This document shows, one piece after another, positions 7,123 through 26,455 of a stretch of 32,000 bases of DNA (positions are counted from its first letter, which is position 1; every line of letters starts with the position of its first letter). This stretch comes from Erysipelotrichaceae bacterium (GTDB lineage Bacteria > Bacillota_I > Bacilli_A > Erysipelotrichales > Erysipelotrichaceae). The stretch covers positions 1,260,001-1,292,000 of the forward strand of contig OY760660.1 of assembly GCA_963663995.1 (NCBI GenBank), given 5' to 3'. The notes below the pieces were generated by a model that had not been told where the DNA came from, did no database searches, and was given only the letters and a program-made list of their open reading frames with translations. Both the position numbers and the translations under genes were made by a program.

Positions 7123-7910
7123 ATTAAAAATCCACGGTTTTTCAATCGTGAATTTTCACCCAGCATACACTGGATATCTCGTAAAATATATTCTTTAAAG
7201 AGTTGTTTGAATCGAGGATATTTTGATTTAAAAAAGATAACTCTTTCATTTTGTGCGCACGAGTTTCTAACTTTTCTAATTAGATGCAACATTGATAGTA
7301 AAAGTGAGTAATAATTTTTTACCACTTTTATCTTTTATATTATATAACTCACACAATTCATCCAATAATTGTGGTTTCGATATCTCTACCACAATTATTA
7401 AATCCCCAAATGTTATTAATTTTGTAAATATCCACGCCGTTACTCTTCCATACTTTTTTGAAAAATGAAAATTATACTCATTTGTTGACTTATCAATTGT
7501 ATGAAAATACCTTGAAATTACTCTAATAATGTCTTGAGTATCCTTGTTGGGGTTATAAGCTTGTACGTCATTCCATTCAATCTCTTTTGGATTAACGAAA
7601 TCTAATTTATACCCAACTAAATTTCCAATTTTCTCCTCTATTCTAGTAATAACTTGCAAAAGTGTATTCTCAAATTATCATCAAATAGTTTTAAACTTAC
7701 AAAAGATTCAATACTAATTCCACCAATATAAATATGATCATTATCTAAATATTTTCCTTGTATAAATGGCTCTTTGTATGCATTTACTAAATTAAAATAA
7801 CCATACTTGATAAGAAATTCTTAACGCTTACTACCTTCACATTTTATTTTTTTCTTATCTCTAAGATACTTTATTTGTGTATTGAAATTTTTAAATGGTT
7901 TTTCATTCAT
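7059..7910 (-). pseudogene. Disrupted Abi_2 (AbiD/AbiF-like, HEPN) abortive-infection gene
   Basis: Minus-strand reading from the ATG at 7910 gives MNEKPFKNFNTQIKYLRDKKKIKCEGSKR, then an in-frame TAA (7821-7823), then EFLIKYGYFNLVNAYKEPF...LFDDNLRIHF. Frameshifts near 7655-7665 and 7276-7325 follow. The last fragment carries LIRKVRNSCAQNERV, where the family motif RNxxAH reads RNSCAQ. Confidence 0.75.
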
Positions 7911-19611: not shown

Positions 19612-20418
19612 CTAAACTCTTCTTACAATTTGGCATTTGTTCAATTTAGAAAGTGCAAAAGAAATAATATGCAATATTTGTAAGCAATCATCTTCATTAT
19701 CGTAACTATATATTTTAGGTTTATGTGATCGAGGATTTCTAAATAAATTCCCAATTGATAATAATAACTGACGATATCCTGTGAATTCATCAATTTCAGA
19801 TTGATTTTTCATTGATGAAAAAACTAGCATTGGAGACTTATCGTTAAATGCTTCATATACAAGACTATTGGAATCAGTTGTTAGACCAGTTAATTTTCTT
19901 ATTTCATCATACAGGGATTTGGATGATTCTAAGATAATATTAAAATAATCTTCATGAATTATATCAGGTTTACAAAAATCAATTATTTTAGGATGAATAT
20001 TTAAATTCTCAAGTTTAACTTTGAATAACTGTGTATCAATCATTGCCTCACGCAATGTAGTTGCCTTTTTAGTAACTACGCATTTACCGGACTCATTAAT
20101 TGTTATTCCATCAAAAGCAAGAATTGTATTAAGAGTTAATCTAAGTTGAATAAAATCATCATGTCTACCAATGAAATTAACTGGGTTAATATAATATTCA
20201 ATTAAAGCGATTATATGATTAGCACAGTCAAATTTTTGTTGATAAAGAGTAAATTGTTTTTCAATTCTTCTCCACTTAGTTGTACGCTCTACATCGTCTT
20301 GTGTTGGGAAATTAACATTTCTAAATTGTTTTGTTAAATTATATCCTGTAGTTAATTCACCAAAGATTTTACTTATTGCTTCTAAAGTGTTAGGTCCAAA
20401 ACATTCTATTTTTGCCAT
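19612..20418 (-). CDS. Ymh/TIGR02391-family protein (HEPN-like, RNPRSH motif) with an unknown N-terminal domain
   Basis: The C-terminal ~120 aa match my recollection of the TIGR02391 layout: SLYDEIRKLTG...LVYEAF...EFTGYRQLLLSIGNLFRNPRSHKP...CLQILHIISFALSKL, including R-x4-H. The ATG at 20418 is preferred because GGGTGGGA lies 6 nt upstream; the ORF track starts at the GTG at 20430. Confidence 0.8.
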   Translation of the reverse strand: MAKIECFGPNTLEAISKIFGELTTGYNLTKQFRNVNFPTQDDVERTTKWRRIEKQFTLYQQKFDCANHIIALIEYYINPVNFIGRHDDFIQLRLTLNTILAFDGITINESGKCVVTKKATTLREAMIDTQLFKVKLENLNIHPKIIDFCKPDIIHEDYFNIILESSKSLYDEIRKLTGLTTDSNSLVYEAFNDKSPMLVFSSMKNQSEIDEFTGYRQLLLSIGNLFRNPRSHKPKIYSYDNEDDCLQILHIISFALSKLNKCQIVRRV

Positions 20419-20525
20419 TAATTTTCCCACCCATTTTCTACTTTCAAATATAACATCTAATAAGTTAAATTTCTAATTGCTTAGATTGTGTAATAATAAT
20501 ATCAATGATTAATTGGTGAGGGAAT

Positions 20526-20882
20526 ATGAAACAAAATTCTGAAACACAAATTCAAAAATGGAACGAAACATTAATTGAAATTATTGAGAGGATTGATTGG
20601 TATTACTTTGAGCTTGATGCCAATTCACAAAAAATATTGGATAATAAAGATTATAGAAATCATCCAATTTCAACATCTATGGCACAACTAAGAATATTTT
20701 CCTTTGAACTTAGCGATGAGGTTAATAAGGATATTTTGAAAGAAATTCTAAAACTAGTCTATAAGTATGATAAGTACAAAATCTATAGTATGGAAACAAT
20801 TATTGAGGATATTATGAATTTATATATTACAGATTTATCTATGTTAATAAATCAAATATATGATCATATGTTAAGTAAATAA
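20526..20882 (+). CDS. Hypothetical 118-aa protein, first gene of a two-gene operon
   Basis: Good SD (GGTGAGGG). No recognisable motif; probably helical. Its stop lies 13 nt before the next gene's ATG. Confidence 0.6.
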   Translation: MKQNSETQIQKWNETLIEIIERIDWYYFELDANSQKILDNKDYRNHPISTSMAQLRIFSFELSDEVNKDILKEILKLVYKYDKYKIYSMETIIEDIMNLYITDLSMLINQIYDHMLSK

Positions 20883-20895
20883 ATGGTAATTGAAA

Positions 20896-21828
20896 ATGAG
20901 TGAAAGAAAATGTTTAGTTTGTGGATCTTCAGAATGTAAAATAACTGAGAATCCTGGCTATAAAAGCATAGTGAACTGTAAACATGGGTTCAAATACATT
21001 GTTTTTGATGAAGTGTTTGAACAGCAGGATGACATTCTAATCAAGTGTAGTAGTTTGATTTTAGAAAAGTTATTACAAAATAGAAACGAAATGCTTATCT
21101 TTTACTATGACAAAGAAAAAAATGAAGACTTAGGAATTAATTTATATAATCTAATAATTAATTATCCAAAGAATATTTCTCAAAAAATAGATAGAATTCT
21201 TTTAAATTTAACTAACAGGCACCCAATCTATGGATATATGTTTAGAACGGATGATTTGGATGACAAATTATTATTCCCTGAAACAAATCAATATCTTGAG
21301 TATGATGGAATTCTAAATATGCTCATCGATTTAAAATATCTAACAAGAGATAATAGAGATGAATATTTTATTATTACATCTAAAGCGTGGGAAAGAGTTG
21401 AGAGTTTACAAAAATCAGCACAAACAACTAACACTGCTTTTCTTGCTATATCATTTGGATCTGAGTCTGAGACCATAATAAAATCGATAAGGAAAGCTGT
21501 CACAAGTTGTGGTTATGATTTTATGATTATTAGTGAGAAAGAGCATAATAATCAGATAGTTCCAGAAATACTATATGAGATAAGTAAAAGTAAATTCGTT
21601 GTTGTCGATATAACACATGGTAATTTTGGAGCTTATTATGAAGCGGGTTATGCGCATGGAATCGGTAAAGAAGTAATTGTGTGCTGCAATAAAGGCAATT
21701 TCCAAAGTGATGATAAAGAAAAACACCCACACTTTGATATATCGCAGAAGAACATGGTTTTATGGGATGATCTCTTAGACTTAGAAGAAAGACTAGTCAA
21801 GAGAATTCAATCAACCGTGGAGGAATAG
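20896..21828 (+). CDS. Zn-ribbon + wHTH-like + nucleoside 2-deoxyribosyltransferase/DNPH1-like (SLOG/TIR-related Rossmannoid) domain protein
   Basis: N-terminal C8-x2-C11...C30-x-H32 (numbering from the TTG at 20890). The C-terminal 182-295 reads AFLAISFG...SKFVVVDITHGNFGAYYEAGYAHGIGKEVIVCC...HFDI, matching the NDT-family core (D/T.G..[FY]E.GyA...gK.vi). An alternative TTG start is at 20890. Confidence 0.65.
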   Translation: MSERKCLVCGSSECKITENPGYKSIVNCKHGFKYIVFDEVFEQQDDILIKCSSLILEKLLQNRNEMLIFYYDKEKNEDLGINLYNLIINYPKNISQKIDRILLNLTNRHPIYGYMFRTDDLDDKLLFPETNQYLEYDGILNMLIDLKYLTRDNRDEYFIITSKAWERVESLQKSAQTTNTAFLAISFGSESETIIKSIRKAVTSCGYDFMIISEKEHNNQIVPEILYEISKSKFVVVDITHGNFGAYYEAGYAHGIGKEVIVCCNKGNFQSDDKEKHPHFDISQKNMVLWDDLLDLEERLVKRIQSTVEE

Positions 21829-21935
21829 TTTAAGTAGATATTTCATTATAACAATTAGTCAAGTCTCCACTAATTTACTTACTACTAATTTATTTATATC
21901 GCTCGAATTAATTTCTTTGTATTTAATTTTTTGCT

Positions 21936-21943: not shown

Positions 21944-22061
21944 GAGAGTATAAAATATTTTGTGTAAACGTCTCTAAGTAGAAGAGACGGTGTTCTTTGA
22001 AAGAGTGGGAAGCACTCATGTAAAATGTAGTTGTTCAGAAAACAATTACAGGAGACTTCCC

Positions 22062-23252
22062 ATGTCAAATTTTAGCACAGATTTAATGAGCGCATTTCTT
22101 AAAGGTGAAAGTATCGAAGAAGTGATGCGAATCGAACTTGAGAAAGCTGTTAATGAGTTATTACAGTTAGAGTTAACCAGTTATCTAGACTATGATAAAT
22201 ATGATCCCATTGGTTATAACACAGGTAACTCAAGAAATGGAACTTACACACGTCAACTCAAAACACGCTTTGGAGAAATCAGTGTAGAAATACCACGAGA
22301 TCGTAATGGAGAATTCAAGCAGCACACAGTTCCCAGTTATAAGCGAAGCACCGATGATTTAGAATCCATGATTATTCAGATGTATCAACGTGGGATAACG
22401 ACATCTGAGATATCAGAACTCATTGAACGCATGTTTGGAATGTATTACACACCGCAAACGATATCGAATATGACGCAAGTTCTAAGTGATCAAGTTGAAG
22501 CGTTTCATACCCGTCAAATTCAGTCTCGATATGTCAGTTTATATCTGGATGCGACTTACTTAAGCGTAAGACGAGATCGTGTCTCTAAAGAAGCTTTACA
22601 CATCATTGTCGGGATTACAGAGGAAGGCATCAAAGAGATTCTAGATTATCGTCTATATCCTTCAGAATCCTCTGAGAACTATCGAGAAATGCTTGAAGAC
22701 TTAAAGTCACGAGGATTAGAAGAAGCACTCATATGTGTCAGTGATGGGTTAACTGGGCTAAGAGATGTTTGTTTAGAAGTATTCCCACAAACTCAACATC
22801 AAAGTTGTTGGGTACATCTATCAAGACGCGTAGGTCATTTAGTTAGAGCTAAAGACAAAGGGATTGTGTTGAATGATTTGAAGGATGTTTATCAAGCTAA
22901 AACAAAGAATGAAGCTTTGATTAATTTAGAAGTTTTTAGAACCAAATATGAAAGACATTATCCTAAAGCCGTTCAAGTCCTAAGCAATACTGAATCACTT
23001 CTAAGCTTCTATAACTTCCCACAATCCATTCAAAGAAGTATTTACACAACTAACTTGATTGAAAATCTAAACAAACAACTCAAACGTCAAACGAAGAAAA
23101 AAGAACAGTTTCCCAATGAAGAATCTTTAGACAGATTCATCTGTAGTCTGTTCTTGAATATGAATCAAAAGTTCCAAAGTAGAATCCACAAAGGATTCAA
23201 TAAATCTGAATACGAATTAGAAAAACATTTCGACAAAACATTTTACGAGTAA
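22062..23252 (+). CDS. IS256-family (Transposase_mut/MULE) transposase
   Basis: The 396-aa layout and blocks resemble IS256 transposases (YLDYDKYD...NSRNGTY, LYLDATYLSVRR, ISDGLTGL, TTNLIENLNKQLKRQTKKKEQFPN). AGGAG lies 7 nt before the ATG at 22062; the GTG at 21990 would read through the IRL. Confidence 0.9.
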   Translation: MSNFSTDLMSAFLKGESIEEVMRIELEKAVNELLQLELTSYLDYDKYDPIGYNTGNSRNGTYTRQLKTRFGEISVEIPRDRNGEFKQHTVPSYKRSTDDLESMIIQMYQRGITTSEISELIERMFGMYYTPQTISNMTQVLSDQVEAFHTRQIQSRYVSLYLDATYLSVRRDRVSKEALHIIVGITEEGIKEILDYRLYPSESSENYREMLEDLKSRGLEEALICVSDGLTGLRDVCLEVFPQTQHQSCWVHLSRRVGHLVRAKDKGIVLNDLKDVYQAKTKNEALINLEVFRTKYERHYPKAVQVLSNTESLLSFYNFPQSIQRSIYTTNLIENLNKQLKRQTKKKEQFPNEESLDRFICSLFLNMNQKFQSRIHKGFNKSEYELEKHFDKTFYE

Positions 23253-23287: not shown

Positions 23288-24744
23288 GGGCGTGCGGACA
23301 TAAAGTTGGACAAAGAGGAGAAATATGCCAACTTATTCAAAACAACAAGTTAAAATAGCTTTAGAACTTTATAGAGAAGAAAGAAGCGCAACACAAGTCG
23401 TGAGGAAATTAGGTTATCCCACAAAAGCTACTATTTACCTTTGGTTAAGTCGTGAAAAAACAAACTCTAATAATCAGATTAAAAATACAGACTCTTATTC
23501 ATATCTAAAACGGAAAACGATTTCACCAGAACTTAAAATAAAAATCATTAAACGATGTTTTGAGGATGGGGAAGATGTTAGATATGTGGCAGAGGAGATG
23601 GGAGTTAGTCGACAAAGCATTCATAATTGGCGTAGAATAATTGAAACCAAAGGATTAATTGGACTAATGAATAAAGATAAGCAGAAGATTATCAAACCAA
23701 ATCTCACAGAAAACAAAGAAATAAAACAAGCGAATACAGAAGAAATCAATTCACTTTTAAATGAAATCAAATCATTAAAAATGGAAGTAGATCTTCTTAA
23801 AGAGGCATTAGATTTAATAAAAAAAGATAAAGGCATTGGTTATCTAAAACTAAAAAATAGTGAAAAAATCCAGTTAATCAATGCCTTAAAAAAAGAATAT
23901 CCATTGAAAGATTTACTAGAACGATTGAACATTCCAAAAAGTTCATATCATTATCATCTAAAGAAATTAAAAAGTCGTGATAAGTATGAAAATTTGTGTT
24001 TAAAAATAAAAGAAATTTATGAATTAAACCGTTGTGTATATGGTTATCGAAGAATAAAGATTAGTCTAAACAATCAAGGAGTCATTGTTTCTGAGAAGGT
24101 TATACGTCGTCTTATGAAACAGATGGAACTAAACCCAAAGTACAAAAAGAAAACAAGAAAGTATAGCTCATATCAGGGTGAAATATCAGAAGCTCCAGAC
24201 AACATTATTAATCGAGATTTCAAATCTGATTATCCAAATCAAAAATGGCTCACAGATATAACTGAATTCGCGTTATCAAATGAAAAAGTATACCTCTCTT
24301 CAATCGTTGACTGTTTTGATGGGAAGATTATTTCTTGGAATACGAGCACTCGTCCTGACGCACAACTAGCTAATGAATCACTAATAGATGCATGTAAGAC
24401 ATTAAAGAAGTCTGATAATGTGATACTTCATTCTGATCGTGGTGGACACTATCGATGGAGTAACTGGATAAATATCACCAAAGAACACAATATTATTCGA
24501 TCTATGTCTAAGAAAGGTTGTACGGGTGATAACGCTGCTTGCGAAGGTGTATTTGGTCATATAAAAAATGAATGTTTTTATGGATTAGATTTTAGAGATT
24601 TTAACGCCGAAGAATTTATTGAATATTTAAATAATTATCTAGTGTGGTTTAATGAAACTAGAATTAAAATAAAATTTGCATGTAGTATTAATGAAAATCG
24701 ACAAAAATACGGTTATTAAAGTCCAACTTTATGTCCGCACGCCC
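23288..24744 (+). mobile_element. IS3-family insertion sequence, 1457 bp, perfect 24-bp terminal inverted repeats, 3-bp TSD CTA
   Basis: GGGCGTGCGGACATAAAGTTGGAC at 23288-23311 equals the reverse complement of 24721-24744. CTA is at 23285-23287 and at 24745-24747. Confidence 0.9.
23325..24719 (+). CDS. IS3-family transposase, OrfA-OrfB fused in a single frame
   Basis: N-terminal HTH regions, then a heptad Leu region, then the DDE/rve core (WLTDITEF, HSDRGGHY, GDNAACEGVFGHIKNE). An A7G run sits at the usual OrfA/OrfB junction (23819-23826). Confidence 0.9.
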   Translation: MPTYSKQQVKIALELYREERSATQVVRKLGYPTKATIYLWLSREKTNSNNQIKNTDSYSYLKRKTISPELKIKIIKRCFEDGEDVRYVAEEMGVSRQSIHNWRRIIETKGLIGLMNKDKQKIIKPNLTENKEIKQANTEEINSLLNEIKSLKMEVDLLKEALDLIKKDKGIGYLKLKNSEKIQLINALKKEYPLKDLLERLNIPKSSYHYHLKKLKSRDKYENLCLKIKEIYELNRCVYGYRRIKISLNNQGVIVSEKVIRRLMKQMELNPKYKKKTRKYSSYQGEISEAPDNIINRDFKSDYPNQKWLTDITEFALSNEKVYLSSIVDCFDGKIISWNTSTRPDAQLANESLIDACKTLKKSDNVILHSDRGGHYRWSNWINITKEHNIIRSMSKKGCTGDNAACEGVFGHIKNECFYGLDFRDFNAEEFIEYLNNYLVWFNETRIKIKFACSINENRQKYGY

Positions 24745-24817: not shown

Positions 24818-25144
24818 CTATTCTTCCTCAACACTTACTAAAAATAATTGTTGATCAAACTTACCATTCTTAATAGCTTTAACTGCTTGAGCCATATTTA
24901 CTTCAGATGAAGTAATAAGATACTTCTCTTTTATCTTGTCCATGACTTCTTGTAGATCTGCTAACTCTTGTATCATTGAAGCTTTATCTTGAGCTTGAAC
25001 TGCTTCACGTGCTTCTTCTACGAGTTTTTCTTTTAGTGCTACTAAAAAGGTTTCATCATCTAAGCTTATGAATTCAGCATGTTTACCATCTTTATTAATG
25101 ATTGCAGGTATATTATCTCTTACTAATTTTTTATAGATTTTCAT
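24818..25144 (-). CDS. MazG-like all-alpha NTP pyrophosphohydrolase (PRA-PH-like small family)
   Basis: MKIYKKLVRDNIPAII N-terminus is typical of this family. Metal-binding motifs EEAREA and ELADLQE are present. The ATG at 25144 is preferred, 1 nt after the upstream TAA. Confidence 0.75.
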   Translation of the reverse strand: MKIYKKLVRDNIPAIINKDGKHAEFISLDDETFLVALKEKLVEEAREAVQAQDKASMIQELADLQEVMDKIKEKYLITSSEVNMAQAVKAIKNGKFDQQLFLVSVEEE

Positions 25145-25145
25145 A

Positions 25146-25562
25146 TTAAATTTCATACTCACTACTAATTCTCAAATAAATTCTTTGTTCTTTTGTTGAA
25201 TTGATTTCATCATAAACAAAAATGCCGATAAAACGATAACCATCCATTGTATTTTGGTCTTTTACAAACGTTACTCTAGTATGTTTAGATTGTTTTTTTA
25301 ATTTAGTTATTTCTTTCGAGTCATCTCTAGTTTCAATTATAACTTTTCCATTATCAGAAATTATGTTTATCCAACCATGATTTGATGGTGATACAAATAC
25401 ACCATTTTCTTTATAAGCCAATTGTGGACACCATGCATACAAATTACCTTTAATTGGAAAATAACCGTGTTGCATAGCTTTGACATCTTTACCAAGCGTA
25501 TTAGCTATATCTACAATTAGTCTATATCTTTCAACATCATTAATCGTTAACTTTTCTTTCAC
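25146..25562 (-). CDS. Hypothetical 138-aa protein (GTG start), middle gene of the operon
   Basis: GGAGGA SD lies 9 nt upstream of the GTG. No family recognised. The pattern looks beta-rich (YFPIKGNLYAWCPQL, GWINIISDNGKVIIE, RVTFVKD, YRFIGIFVYDE). Confidence 0.6.
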   Translation of the reverse strand: MKEKLTINDVERYRLIVDIANTLGKDVKAMQHGYFPIKGNLYAWCPQLAYKENGVFVSPSNHGWINIISDNGKVIIETRDDSKEITKLKKQSKHTRVTFVKDQNTMDGYRFIGIFVYDEINSTKEQRIYLRISSEYEI

Positions 25563-25585
25563 TTAATAAATATCCTCCAATTAAA

Positions 25586-26455
25586 TCAAAATACTCCTAT
25601 AATTTTCCAAACAGTACTTTCTTTTTTTCTAAATGTATTTTTCGTACCAAATCCAAGTTTTGAAATTTCAGCAAATAAATCGGCATTTATTCCAAAATCA
25701 TCATTATATTCTAGTAATAAATGAAAATTTCTAAGATCATGGTTCAATCTACCTTCACCAACACTTTGCCATGTAGGTTCATGATGATACCATGCCAAGT
25801 TGTCAGGTAATTTCAAAGATTCATTATTTATATATTCAGCGTTATAAATTAACTTCTTATCTTTAAGTAATTTAACATTTATCTTGGTCTTTGCTTTTTT
25901 CTCAGCATCTAGCTCATTTATTGAATTGAAATCCCACCCAGAAATATATTCTACATTTATTTTCTTCGCACCAAGGTTTGTTAACAATAGGATTAGTTCT
26001 GAAAACTTATGTTCAAATGCTTTCTTATGAAACTCGTTTATTGGATAATACGTACCTATCAAAGTTGGATGTGCAACATACAATTCATTTTCTCTTGGAT
26101 GACCTATTGGAAATTTTAAATCTAATGAATCAGTGAACGAAATATAATTAACATTTACTCGCTTTGCTAACTCTCTTTGCTTTTTTATAGAGTTTAATAC
26201 CACATCTATCACTGCTATACCTATTCCAGCTGCTAACGGGACAACACCAAAACCTCTTATACTAATAACGCCAGCTATTATCGATCTCCACAAATTATCG
26301 TTGGAATCCTCATTTTTATCATTATCTTTTTCTTTTGACTTAATTTCTGATTCAAATATTTTTTCTTCTGCTAACAATTTCGTTTCGATAATCTCATCTT
26401 TTTCTACGACTAGAAACTGTCTTAAAGAATACGGTTTATCTATTAAATTTCCCAT
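25586..26455 (-). CDS. Membrane-anchored hypothetical protein (acidic N-tail, hydrophobic segment res 56-89, ~200-aa C-terminal domain)
   Basis: 289-aa ORF with AAGGA 7 nt before the ATG. The hydrophobic stretch is WRSIIAGVISIRGFGVVPLAAGIGIAVIDVVLNSI. The C-terminal domain (LAWYHHEPTWQ, FHLLLEYNDDFGI) is not recognised. Confidence 0.6.
   Translation of the reverse strand: MGNLIDKPYSLRQFLVVEKDEIIETKLLAEEKIFESEIKSKEKDNDKNEDSNDNLWRSIIAGVISIRGFGVVPLAAGIGIAVIDVVLNSIKKQRELAKRVNVNYISFTDSLDLKFPIGHPRENELYVAHPTLIGTYYPINEFHKKAFEHKFSELILLLTNLGAKKINVEYISGWDFNSINELDAEKKAKTKINVKLLKDKKLIYNAEYINNESLKLPDNLAWYHHEPTWQSVGEGRLNHDLRNFHLLLEYNDDFGINADLFAEISKLGFGTKNTFRKKESTVWKIIGVF

Follow-up and report, generated by a model that had tools for sequence, protein, structure and literature searches.

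In the nucleoside 2-deoxyribosyltransferases (NDT) and in DNPH1/Rcl, a glutamate is the nucleophile (E93 in rat Rcl and E98 in the L. leichmannii NDT), and a second acidic residue, D69 in Rcl and D72 in NDT, contacts the 3'-OH of the sugar. The catalytic role of the glutamate is also covered by reference 111 of PMC3710099. In our study, we analysed a window of 32,000 nucleotides from an Erysipelotrichaceae bacterium (contig OY760660.1, positions 1,260,001 to 1,292,000), in which a gene on the + strand (20896..21828) was found to encode a protein of three domains: a zinc ribbon, a winged helix, and an NDT/TIR-type domain. The last of these shares with DNPH1/Rcl and NDT the flavodoxin-like fold and the motif T-x-P-[S/N]-x-G-x-x-Y-E-x-G-x-A-x-x-x-G-K, in which the Glu is aligned, whereas the invariant EHNN and PHFD..Q motifs are the family's own. 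The metabolic NDT/DNPH1 enzymes contain no counterpart of the zinc-ribbon and winged-helix head, and their context is metabolic whereas that of the family is mobile and defence-related.

TIR-like DUF4062/NIR NADases fused to sensors act in abortive-infection defence (10.64898/2026.05.01.722283; 10.64898/2026.09.04.749371). As in our protein, the sensor and the effector of the TIR/DUF4062/NIR NADases (Swarozyc, Vulcan, Vesta, Avs2-NIR; SARM1) are contained in a single protein found in defence islands; the Glu on the helix after the third strand and a first strand of TIR-like appearance are likewise common to both. The enzyme domain, however, is C-terminal in our protein and N-terminal in the DUF4062/NIR-type systems, and the sensors of the TIR/NIR systems are HEAT repeats, STAND-TPR or a helical stalk instead of a zinc ribbon and a winged helix.

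The retron type II-A effector (Retron-Eco1/Ec86) also carries an NDT-like and a winged-helix domain in one polypeptide and is kept inactive until a phage cue; its NDT-like N-glycosidase hydrolyses NAD(P)+ (PMC12673091). There the NDT-like domain is N-terminal and the DNA-binding winged helix C-terminal, whereas the order is reversed in our protein; moreover, the retron effector is devoid of a zinc ribbon and binds msDNA through basic surfaces, whereas the head of our protein is acidic. The solved Retron-Eco1 effector gave no sequence match at E<=10. Membership of a retron was ruled out by the reversed domain order and by the absence of a reverse transcriptase and of an msr/msd RNA nearby: no reverse transcriptase was present among the window ORFs, no Rfam family reached its gathering score, and no reverse transcriptase cluster was found among the neighbours at 84 related loci.

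The fusion of N-terminal sensor domains to NDT toxin domains in Abi-like proteins was predicted in 2013 (Anantharaman et al.; PMC3710099). The Abi-type proteins (PrrC/RloC logic; AbiJ-NTD1-NDT fusions) contain a variable N-terminal head followed by a C-terminal toxin and are inserted in R-M operons, as family members are in 13 species; their heads are AbiJ-NTD, whereas ours is a zinc ribbon with a winged helix and has no link to anticodon nucleases or HEPN catalysis. In our literature searches, no defence protein combining a zinc ribbon, a winged helix and an NDT domain was found described, and the head would be a sensor type not previously described for NDT/TIR-fold effectors. On balance, we regard the protein as probably a new stand-alone anti-phage or anti-mobile-element defence protein, composed of sensor and effector, rather than a metabolic enzyme.

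The gene and its family

The ORF extends from 20890 (TTG) or 20896 (ATG) to 21828 on the + strand, and the public gene call gives 310 amino acids, followed by a stop codon, from the ATG at 20896, in agreement with the coordinates of the original prediction. A start at the in-frame TTG (20890) would lengthen the protein by two residues. The closest relative contains a GGAG 7 nucleotides upstream of the same ATG. The ORF is a real gene. The residue numbers first assigned to the protein were counted from the TTG although its coordinates began at 20896, so that C8, C11, C30, H32 and E251 of that count correspond to C6, C9, C28, H30 and E249, respectively, in the 310-residue numbering used here.

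The family is large and uncharacterised. Searches gave 729 hits in a 90%-clustered database and 1,670 representative clusters at E<=1e-30 in a 50%-clustered library, so that the ORF is no chance reading frame. Nearly all members were 310-350 amino acids long with an identical architecture, and the whole protein was acidic (median pI of 5.7 in the family). The members were mainly found in gut Clostridia, followed by Bacteroidota, Spirochaetota, Chloroflexota, Fibrobacterota and one archaeon; they were carried on plasmids and in prophages too. The full-length AF2 model of the target had a pLDDT of 87.7 and a pTM of only 0.61, so the arrangement of the domains, and hence any autoinhibition, is not defined by this model.

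The zinc ribbon and the winged helix

The N-terminal module (residues 1-44, 20896..21027, + strand) contained three short strands, which the AF2 model of residues 1-176 placed within residues 15-37 at a pLDDT above 90. The C6, C9 and C14 residues (codons 20911-20913, 20920-20922 and 20935-20937, + strand) were at least 90% conserved in the family alignments, and C28 (20977-20979) was invariant, whereas H30 was not conserved. The putative zinc ligands are therefore likely to be four Cys residues in the order CxxC-x4-C-x13-C rather than the CxxC...CxH cluster proposed earlier; C6, C9 and C28 of that cluster were conserved, and the fourth ligand would be C14 in place of the His. The N-terminal CxxC was found in 307 of 324 full-length relatives and two CxxC in 112 of them, and distant relatives contained a canonical CPxCG...CPxCGRF ribbon. 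With four conserved predicted ligands and three modelled strands, the module has the features of a zinc ribbon.

The next region (residues 45-176, 21028..21423, + strand) was delimited from conservation, model, Foldseek and charge. It consisted of a helical region and a winged-helix module, with the core at about residues 90-161 (21163-21378, + strand) and a linker helix at residues 162-175; Y90-P91, N104 and W165 were invariant in the family. The AF2 model of residues 1-176 was confident (pLDDT 93.9, pTM 0.89) and showed the alpha-beta-alpha-alpha-beta-beta order at about residues 94-160. In the full-length model, helices were found at 94-108, 120-124 and 133-145 and strands at 115-117, 149-152 and 157-160; the two models agreed, save that 115-116 in the shorter one was too short for a three-residue strand. 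The alpha1-beta1-alpha2-alpha3-beta2-beta3 winged-helix topology was thus present in the model, and the original prediction of a winged-helix-like middle segment was borne out there, the Foldseek matches to winged helices being weak. These matches were to MarR, PadR, TubR, F93, the cullin WH-B and the ORC2 WH, with a probability of 0.9-0.99 and an rmsd of 3.6-5 A over 80-95 columns; no solved structure matched the head at E<=1e-3. The MYST acetyltransferases were the top Foldseek matches of the head and were rejected as its relatives, the rmsd being above 11 A. The MYST matches reflect only the arrangement of a zinc finger plus a winged helix.

The median pI of the winged-helix core was 5.1, and the recognition-helix segment had a median net charge of -2 and a pI of about 4. 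Only R100, R167 and a few Lys residues were conserved as basic residues, and the charge analysis of the family revealed no basic recognition helix or wing fit for DNA contact. DNA binding by this module is doubtful because it is acidic, and the idea of a nucleic-acid-binding head is weakened to that extent.

The C-terminal NDT/TIR-type domain

The C-terminal domain (residues 177-310, 21424..21825, + strand), which had been recognised earlier as a distinct block, was strongly conserved in the family. From profiles, model and Foldseek, it appears to be a divergent member of the NDT/DNPH1-TIR flavodoxin-like superfamily. The AlphaFold model gave a flavodoxin-like fold, as anticipated. Against the PDB, the top Foldseek match was the TIR domain of SARM1 (E=3.7e-4; 7cm7, 7djt); the DNPH1 chains were matched with a probability of 1.0, a TM(target) of 0.62-0.73 and an E of about 1e-3, and NDT (9emw), the CMP N-glycosidase BcmB (4jen) and TIR-1 of C. 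elegans were also matched. Against BFVD, the matches were viral NDTs, CMP/hmCMP hydrolases and a Cap12/Pycsar TIR.

At the level of sequence, the best match of the domain profile among the solved structures was Rcl/DNPH1 (E=0.006). The Pfam family Nuc_deoxyrib_tr (PF05014, clan Nribosyltransf) matched the target with 16.9 bits (E=0.007), below its gathering score of 28.8 bits; it was matched weakly by all 42 aligned members, with a best E of only 1.5e-5. Among the TIR and TIR-like families (PF01582, PF13676, PF10137, PF13271), the Pfam TIR score was 14.3 bits (cut-off 21.3), and DUF4062 (PF13271) was matched weakly by 10 of the 42 members, with a best E of 0.0026, whereas TIR_2 and CAP12-PCTIR_TIR were each matched by one member with an E above 0.05. 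Thus, no Pfam family was reached at its curated threshold by the C-terminal domain, and the NCBIfam search gave no equivalog and no meaningful match. The 'Effector TIR' model of CBASS in PADLOC was matched by 42/42 members (best 3.9e-8), within the domain only. The SLOG/LOG profiles of Pfam matched none of the 42 members at E<=0.1. Of the profile comparisons suggested beforehand, those with Nuc_deoxyrib_tr and the TIR-like families accordingly stayed below the cut-offs and that with SLOG gave nothing; the assignment to an NDT/DNPH1-like domain holds for the fold and for the alignment of the Glu and falls short at the Pfam score. Matches to characterised families were all below curated thresholds, an observation that speaks against the defence reading.

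The first strand of the domain was F-I-A-M-S-F, with the family consensus [QT]-[AG]-F-[IVL]-A-[IM]-S-F, in which there is no Tyr; the Gly-rich loop after strand 1 was absent in the alignment. It appears to lack both the phosphate-binding loop of DNPH1 and the Tyr of NDT (Y-x-x-G...), and the HMM alignments to Rcl stopped short of it. The first strand looks TIR-like rather than DNPH1-like, and among Pfam families the domain has its place between NDT, TIR and DUF4062/NIR.

The predicted catalytic residue E249 was found in the N-x-G-A-Y-Y-E-A-G-Y-A motif, and its codon GAA (21640..21642, + strand) encodes the E of FGAYYEAGYAHGI, at the position given before. E249 was aligned with the Glu of the Rcl/DNPH1 motif GVGYELG, was invariant in both family alignments and was kept in 324/324 full-length relatives, which confirms its retention; neither the modelled fold nor the conservation of the Glu contradicted the original prediction. 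In the model, E249 lay at the start of the helix 244-255, after the strand 232-238, and would be equivalent to E642 of SARM1. Two other motifs were invariant: E-K-E-H-N-N-Q-I-V-P-E-I in a loop and helix (residues 214-225, 21535..21570, + strand) and P-H-F-D-I-S-Q-K (residues 278-285, 21727..21750, + strand), of which HFD..Q was found in 320/324 relatives. The invariant E224 (V-P-E-I; 21565-21567) lay one position off D69 of Rcl (D69A/D69N chains) in the HMM alignment. Besides the Glu, about 20 polar residues were invariant. The substrate cannot be deduced from these features.

Genomic context and probable function

The target gene lies inside a low-GC island of the window, in which a Sau3AI-type R-M, PDC-S46, a Ymh/HEPN PD-Lambda-3_B-like gene and IS256/IS3 elements are neighbours. 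The relatives adjoined integrases, serine recombinases, type I/II R-M, Wadjet, SLFN helicases, DUF4365 and a SEFIR protein, and some were located on Bacillus and Leptospira plasmids; a few immediate neighbours were housekeeping genes (tRNA synthetase, SAM synthetase). The phage family phrog_16139 gave a near-full-length match with an E of 3e-34. In 13 species, mod and res of a type III-like R-M operon flanked the gene, and the junctions overlapped or nearly abutted. Other, unrelated cargo genes were also found in this mod-res slot, pointing to a hotspot of insertion. The defence-island context, missed in the original prediction, is the strongest indication of the target's role. PADLOC v2 contains no model for the family, so the defence role is argued by guilt by association; the only matches were weak, domain-level ones to the CBASS 'Effector TIR' and NsnC. 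The identity of a CBASS/Pycsar effector was rejected, the head being a zinc ribbon with a winged helix and no CD-NTase or pyrimidine cyclase being adjacent; neither these nor a signal-binding domain (SAVED, STING, cNMP) was found among the window neighbours or the neighbour clusters at related loci.

To identify partner genes, all ORFs within 6 kb were clustered at 84 related loci. No partner gene was conserved across them, and fixed neighbours were found only in the type III-like R-M subgroup (13 loci). PDC-S46 was not found near other family members at related loci. In the window, an upstream ORF of 118 amino acids (ORF118; 20526..20882, + strand), examined by ORF scan, homologue searches and comparison with the closest relative, ends 13 nucleotides before the target ATG on the same strand. 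The block of Ymh, ORF118 and target (about 19143-21843) has stayed together in the single close relative, with different flanks on both sides, and 19 of the 35 differences between the two ORF118 copies were at third codon positions, as expected for a coding sequence. In this lineage, the target could act as toxin in a module of two or three genes in which ORF118 (as antitoxin or regulator), the divergent Ymh/HEPN gene, or both take part; a solo effector would then not fully describe the window copy. We consider this unlikely, though it is the best placed of the competing explanations: ORF118 had no homologue beyond the closest relative among 5.8 billion proteins, ORF118 and Ymh were absent from all 87 other loci with family members, and the two copies were only about 82-90% diverged, so the shared synteny may be simple inheritance. 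ORF118 may be a lineage-specific operon partner outside the family-wide unit. Scans for promoters and terminators were of no help in DNA so rich in AT, with 25 promoter-like sites against 23.6 expected.

In the stand-alone defence reading, the C-terminal domain would be the effector, an N-glycosidase of the NDT/DNPH1-TIR superfamily. E249 would attack C1' of a ribose or deoxyribose, or activate water there, in a pocket formed by the invariant E224, H217-N218-N219 and H279-F280-D281. The most likely substrates would be NAD(P)+, as in TIR, DUF4062/NIR and the NDT-like effector of retron-Eco1, or a (deoxy)nucleotide, as in DNPH1 and BcmB. The zinc ribbon and the acidic winged helix would keep the enzyme inactive until they recognise a sign of infection, for which a phage protein is more probable than DNA, and release or oligomerise the enzyme; the substrate would then be depleted and phage replication halted, probably through abortive infection. 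The earlier picture of a nucleotide-destroying effector on a nucleic-acid-binding head is thus retained for the NDT/TIR-type fold with its Glu and doubtful for the DNA-binding head. If confirmed, a large family (more than 1,600 clusters at 50% identity) would join the one-protein immune effectors of the NDT/TIR N-glycosidase fold, and, as its domain lies between NDT, TIR and DUF4062/NIR, it could help to show how the choice of NAD+ or nucleotide is set in the superfamily.

A little less probable than the module is a variant in which the family would be a hitherto unrecognised, very widespread single-gene anti-phage system that hydrolyses a phage-specific modified nucleotide, or excises bases of phage nucleic acid, in place of NAD+, the acidic head recognising a phage protein. 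The modified-nucleotide target is proposed by analogy with the closest solved relatives, DNPH1 (hmdUMP) and BcmB/MilB (CMP/hmCMP); if true, the system would protect directly, and without abortive infection, against phages whose DNA is hypermodified.

We give only a slim chance to a one-component regulator or ligand sensor, whose Rossmann-like C-terminal domain, as a SLOG/TIR-like binder, would hold a nucleotide or second messenger without cleaving it, while the winged helix would bind DNA and control transcription. A zinc ribbon, a wHTH and a small-molecule-binding fold do recall transcription factors, and MarR, PadR and FNR-type winged helices are among the Foldseek matches of the head. However, the winged helix and its recognition-helix segment are acidic, as given above, no adjacent target gene is conserved, and the mod-res insertion with overlapping junctions misfits a regulator of a divergent promoter. 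The SLOG alternative of the original prediction lost its footing in particular, since none of the 42 members matched SLOG/LOG and the Glu at the catalytic position is surrounded by invariant polar residues.

A nucleoside 2-deoxyribosyltransferase or nucleotide N-hydrolase of housekeeping or salvage metabolism, with the N-terminal module as a mere structural or regulatory appendage, is slimmer again. PGAP names the plasmid homologues of Bacillus mycoides and Leptospira 'nucleoside 2-deoxyribosyltransferase', Rcl/DNPH1 is the best match among solved structures, and every member matches PF05014 weakly. These scores nevertheless do not reach the gathering threshold of Pfam, and none of the NCBIfam equivalogs matches; members occur patchily and in mobile settings (plasmids, prophages, integrases, IS elements, R-M operons), the cassette has moved between different flanks, and the conserved head has no metabolic counterpart. 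The PGAP name is probably misleading for thousands of genes.

Least probable of all is an R-M accessory acting on polymeric nucleic acid, for example a base-excising or base-exchanging enzyme on modified phage DNA, for which the mod-res embedding, the specificity of the relatives DNPH1 and BcmB for modified pyrimidine nucleotides (by PDB titles) and the proposal of Aravind and colleagues that NDT domains in Abi-like proteins may deglycosylate DNA (PMC3710099) can be cited, but most loci are without an adjacent type III-like R-M, the unrelated cargo suggests a hotspot, the protein is acidic overall, and our searches found no NDT-fold DNA glycosylase as a precedent.

The gene and its C-terminal domain

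The ORF scan of the window found one long ORF on the + strand (20890/20896 to 21828). The public call for the identical protein (P0001) has 310 aa and an ATG start at 20896, and a GGAG was present 7 nt upstream of the matching ATG in the closest relative; therefore, residues were numbered from the Met at 20896. The ORF coordinates of the original prediction were upheld by the scan and the public call, whereas its residue numbers, counted from the TTG at 20890, were two too high. The GAA at 21640-21642 encoded the Glu of FGAYYEAGYAHGI, as had been proposed. The 90%-clustered database contained 729 matching proteins, nearly all of 310-335 aa and matching end-to-end at ~40% identity. When 1.84 billion representatives were searched exhaustively with the profile, the number of clusters was 1,670 at E<=1e-30, rising to 5,854 at E<=1e-10 and to 10,077 at E<=1e-3. 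With 729 matches and 1,670 clusters at E<=1e-30, the gene is no chance ORF.

The C-terminal alpha/beta domain (residues 177-310) contained five strands alternating with helices. The alignments showed an invariant first strand, F-x-A-x-S-F, followed by invariant E-K-E-H-N-N-Q-I-V-P-E-I (residues 214-225), D-x-T-x-x-N-x-G-A-Y-Y-E-A-G-Y-A-x-x-x-G-K-x-V-I-x-C-C, which holds E249, and P-H-F-D-x-x-Q-K (residues 278-285) motifs. Plasmid-borne homologues from Bacillus mycoides and Leptospira, at 30-36% identity, still carried the core of these motifs (EHNN, the Glu motif and HFD..Q). By the Pfam cut-offs the domain belonged to no curated family, with 16.9 bits for Nuc_deoxyrib_tr (cut-off 28.8) and 14.3 bits for TIR (cut-off 21.3). 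Among 42 aligned family members, a weak Nuc_deoxyrib_tr match was found in all 42 (best 1.5e-5), a DUF4062 match in 10 (best 0.0026) and a match to the PADLOC CBASS 'Effector TIR' model in all 42 (best 3.9e-8).

Against solved structures, the only meaningful relatives of the domain profile were Rcl/DNPH1 (E=0.006), followed by BcmB and an NDT. The profile alignment paired T-x-P-N-x-G-A-Y-Y-E-A-G-Y-A-x-x-L-G-K of the family with T-Q-P-S-L-G-V-G-Y-E-L-G-R-A-V-A-L-G-K of Rcl, so that E249 was aligned to the Rcl Glu; the invariant E224 was one position off the site distinguishing the D69A and D69N Rcl chains. Foldseek against the PDB found the SARM1 TIR (E=3.7e-4), an NDT, BcmB and numerous DNPH1 chains with TM(target) of 0.62-0.73, and against viral models NDTs, CMP/hmCMP hydrolases and a Cap12/Pycsar TIR. 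The domain was modelled as a flavodoxin-like fold and the Glu was present in 324/324 full-length relatives, in line with the original assignment; 11 outside the strict pattern also carried Glu. The profile scores, Rcl alignment, Foldseek matches and conserved Glu thus define the domain as a separate family within the NDT-TIR N-glycosidase superfamily, combining an NDT/DNPH1-like Glu motif with a TIR-like first strand.

The N-terminal head

The alignment of 42 members and the AF2 models divided the protein into three modules. The full-length model had a pLDDT of 87.7 and a pTM of 0.61, and that of residues 1-176 by themselves 93.9 and 0.89. Residues 1-44 formed a zinc ribbon of three short strands, as judged from the models and conservation. 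C28 was invariant and C6, C9 and C14 were conserved at >=90%; of the residues proposed originally, C6, C9 and C28 thus stood, whereas the His was not conserved. Distant members contained the textbook ribbon CPxCG...CPxCG[RK][FY], and 307/324 full-length relatives an N-terminal CxxC.

Residues 45-176 were modelled as a long helix, a winged helix (H94-108, E115-117, H120-124, H133-145 and a hairpin at 149-160) and a linker helix (162-175). Foldseek gave only weak matches, although of the expected class, namely MarR, PadR, TubR, STIV F93, cullin WH-B and ORC2 WH (probability 0.9-0.99, rmsd 3.6-5 A). The suggested winged-helix fold was confirmed, whereas its suggested binding of nucleic acid was weakened because the module is acidic (median core pI 5.1; net charge of the recognition-helix segment -2).

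Genomic context of the family and of the window copy

Neighbourhoods were compared at 84 loci from different species. A single arrangement recurred, at 13/84 loci (L054, L056, L058, L063-L065, L067, L069, L071, L075, L077, L080 and L086; family member at ~7.7-9 kb in most), where the family member was embedded in a type III-like R-M operon, with Mod on one side and Res on the other. In these 13 species, a helicase-YAcAr/DUF4391 pair was upstream of the family gene, with N6_N4 methylase and ResIII+RE_endonuc around it, and the junctions were overlapping or almost abutting. Unrelated small genes (blast clusters c9, c24, c25 and c56) sometimes occupied the same interval, which looks like a cargo hotspot inside the R-M system. 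For this embedded subgroup, an R-M-linked glycosidase acting on nucleic acid is conceivable but unlikely.

At other loci the genes directly beside the family member were heterogeneous; genes for integrases, serine recombinases, subunits of type I/II R-M, Wadjet, SLFN/AlbA_2, AAA_21/AbiEii-like, PDC-S01 and mad3 were abundant, and some housekeeping genes were present. Homologues adjoined integrase and ArpU on Bacillus mycoides megaplasmids, and a SEFIR protein on one Leptospira plasmid-prophage. Residues 53-308 matched the phage family phrog_16139 (E=3e-34). This context bears the hallmarks of a defence gene that stands alone and moves horizontally. Lactobacillus phage BH1 (MH983004.1, locus L091, 4425-5498, +) encoded a 357-aa protein with a related C-terminal domain (N-x-N-V-F-Y-E-L-G) and an unrelated N-terminus without the Zn ribbon; the enzyme domain is thus joined to other heads in phages.

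The window copy was found in a low-GC stretch (~13.4-26.5 kb; GC down to 0.24-0.27) between housekeeping genes, containing Sau3AI-type R-M, PDC-S46, Ymh/HEPN, ORF118, target, transposase and SRA-fragment sequences. The GC trough at 15000-21000 (0.24-0.27 against 0.30-0.39 in the flanks) coincided with the defence genes, as expected if these were acquired horizontally. At 13417-16113 was a Sau3AI-type type II R-M pair in divergent orientation, its methylase being of the C5 cytosine type (13417-14661, -) and its endonuclease Sau3AI/MutH-like (14707-16113, +; NF040973, 2.9e-123). A 700-aa SMC_N-like ATPase (16844-18946, +; phrog_38705) matched the single-gene PADLOC candidate PDC-S46 end-to-end (3.3e-100); tblastn detected no homology between it and the 712-aa AAA_13/AAA_15 ATPase immediately 5' of the family member at L008/L013. 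The divergent Ymh/HEPN gene (19612-20430, -) matched Hypoth_Ymh (Pfam, 1.8e-27), PD-Lambda-3_B (PADLOC, 3.7e-47) and phrog_6297, and no recognisable PD-Lambda-3_A partner was seen near it.

Immediately downstream of the target, a terminator-like hairpin (21969-21989) preceded an IS256/Mutator-family transposase gene (21990-23252), back to back with a single 464-aa IS3-family ORF (23325-24719). In the region 24818-26455, a 137-aa SRA-domain ORF (25146-25562, -) aligned to the model of a methyl-directed type II restriction enzyme over the model's C-terminal half alone (positions 155-285/294); this ORF is probably what remains of a gene after truncation or a frameshift. The ORFs on either side (24818-25162 and 25586-26455) had no family match. 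Outside the island were an AAA_14/DUF4143 ATPase (64-1278, -; PADLOC candidate PDC-S01, 7.9e-118) and a 126-aa fragment (7276-7659, -) matching the middle of AbiD (2.3e-7).

The target had a sole close relative, of 82% identity, at locus L007. A 2.7-kb block of Ymh, ORF118 and target (~19143-21843) was common to both, with different flanks on both sides; homology stopped at ~21843, just past the target stop codon and shortly before the transposase genes. ORF118, a 118-aa orphan immediately 5' of the target (20526-20882, +), was 87% identical in L007, and no other homologue was found in 5.8 billion proteins. It is probably a real gene, since the differences between the copies were mainly at third codon positions. 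That the window copy forms a lineage-specific toxin-antitoxin-like module with ORF118 is rather improbable; neither ORF118 nor Ymh was found at 87 other family loci.

Proposed mechanism and novelty

A sensor-fused N-glycosidase, for which there are direct precedents, is the best-supported model for the target. In Swarozyc, Vulcan, Vesta and Avs2, DUF4062/NIR TIR-like domains joined to varied sensors deplete NAD+ in abortive-infection defence that requires the Glu at the corresponding position (10.64898/2026.05.01.722283; 10.64898/2026.09.04.749371). The retron-Eco1 effector, which like the target has an NDT-like domain and a winged helix, hydrolyses NAD(P)+ once a phage cue has been received (PMC12673091), and N-terminal sensor domains fused to NDT domains were predicted in Abi-like proteins in 2013 (PMC3710099). 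In the target, the head would keep the enzyme off until a phage component is met, whereupon E249 would act as the catalytic residue on NAD(P)+ or a (deoxy)nucleotide; activation may involve oligomerisation, which TIR and NDT enzymes also show. As the head is acidic, a protein is a likelier trigger than DNA.

The acidic winged helix, the absence of any SLOG signal in the profile search of 42 family members and the invariant catalytic constellation make a ligand-sensing transcription factor, or the ligand sensor offered as the second original option, unlikely. A metabolic NDT, as in the PGAP name, is unlikely in view of the mobility, genomic context and extra head. Database names for the family were hypothetical or 'nucleoside 2-deoxyribosyltransferase', PADLOC v2 had no model for it, and no description of the Zn ribbon + winged helix + NDT architecture was found in the literature searched. 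The combination of a sensor with an NDT/TIR-type effector is of a well-known kind; the novelty lies in the sub-family of the enzyme and in the head.
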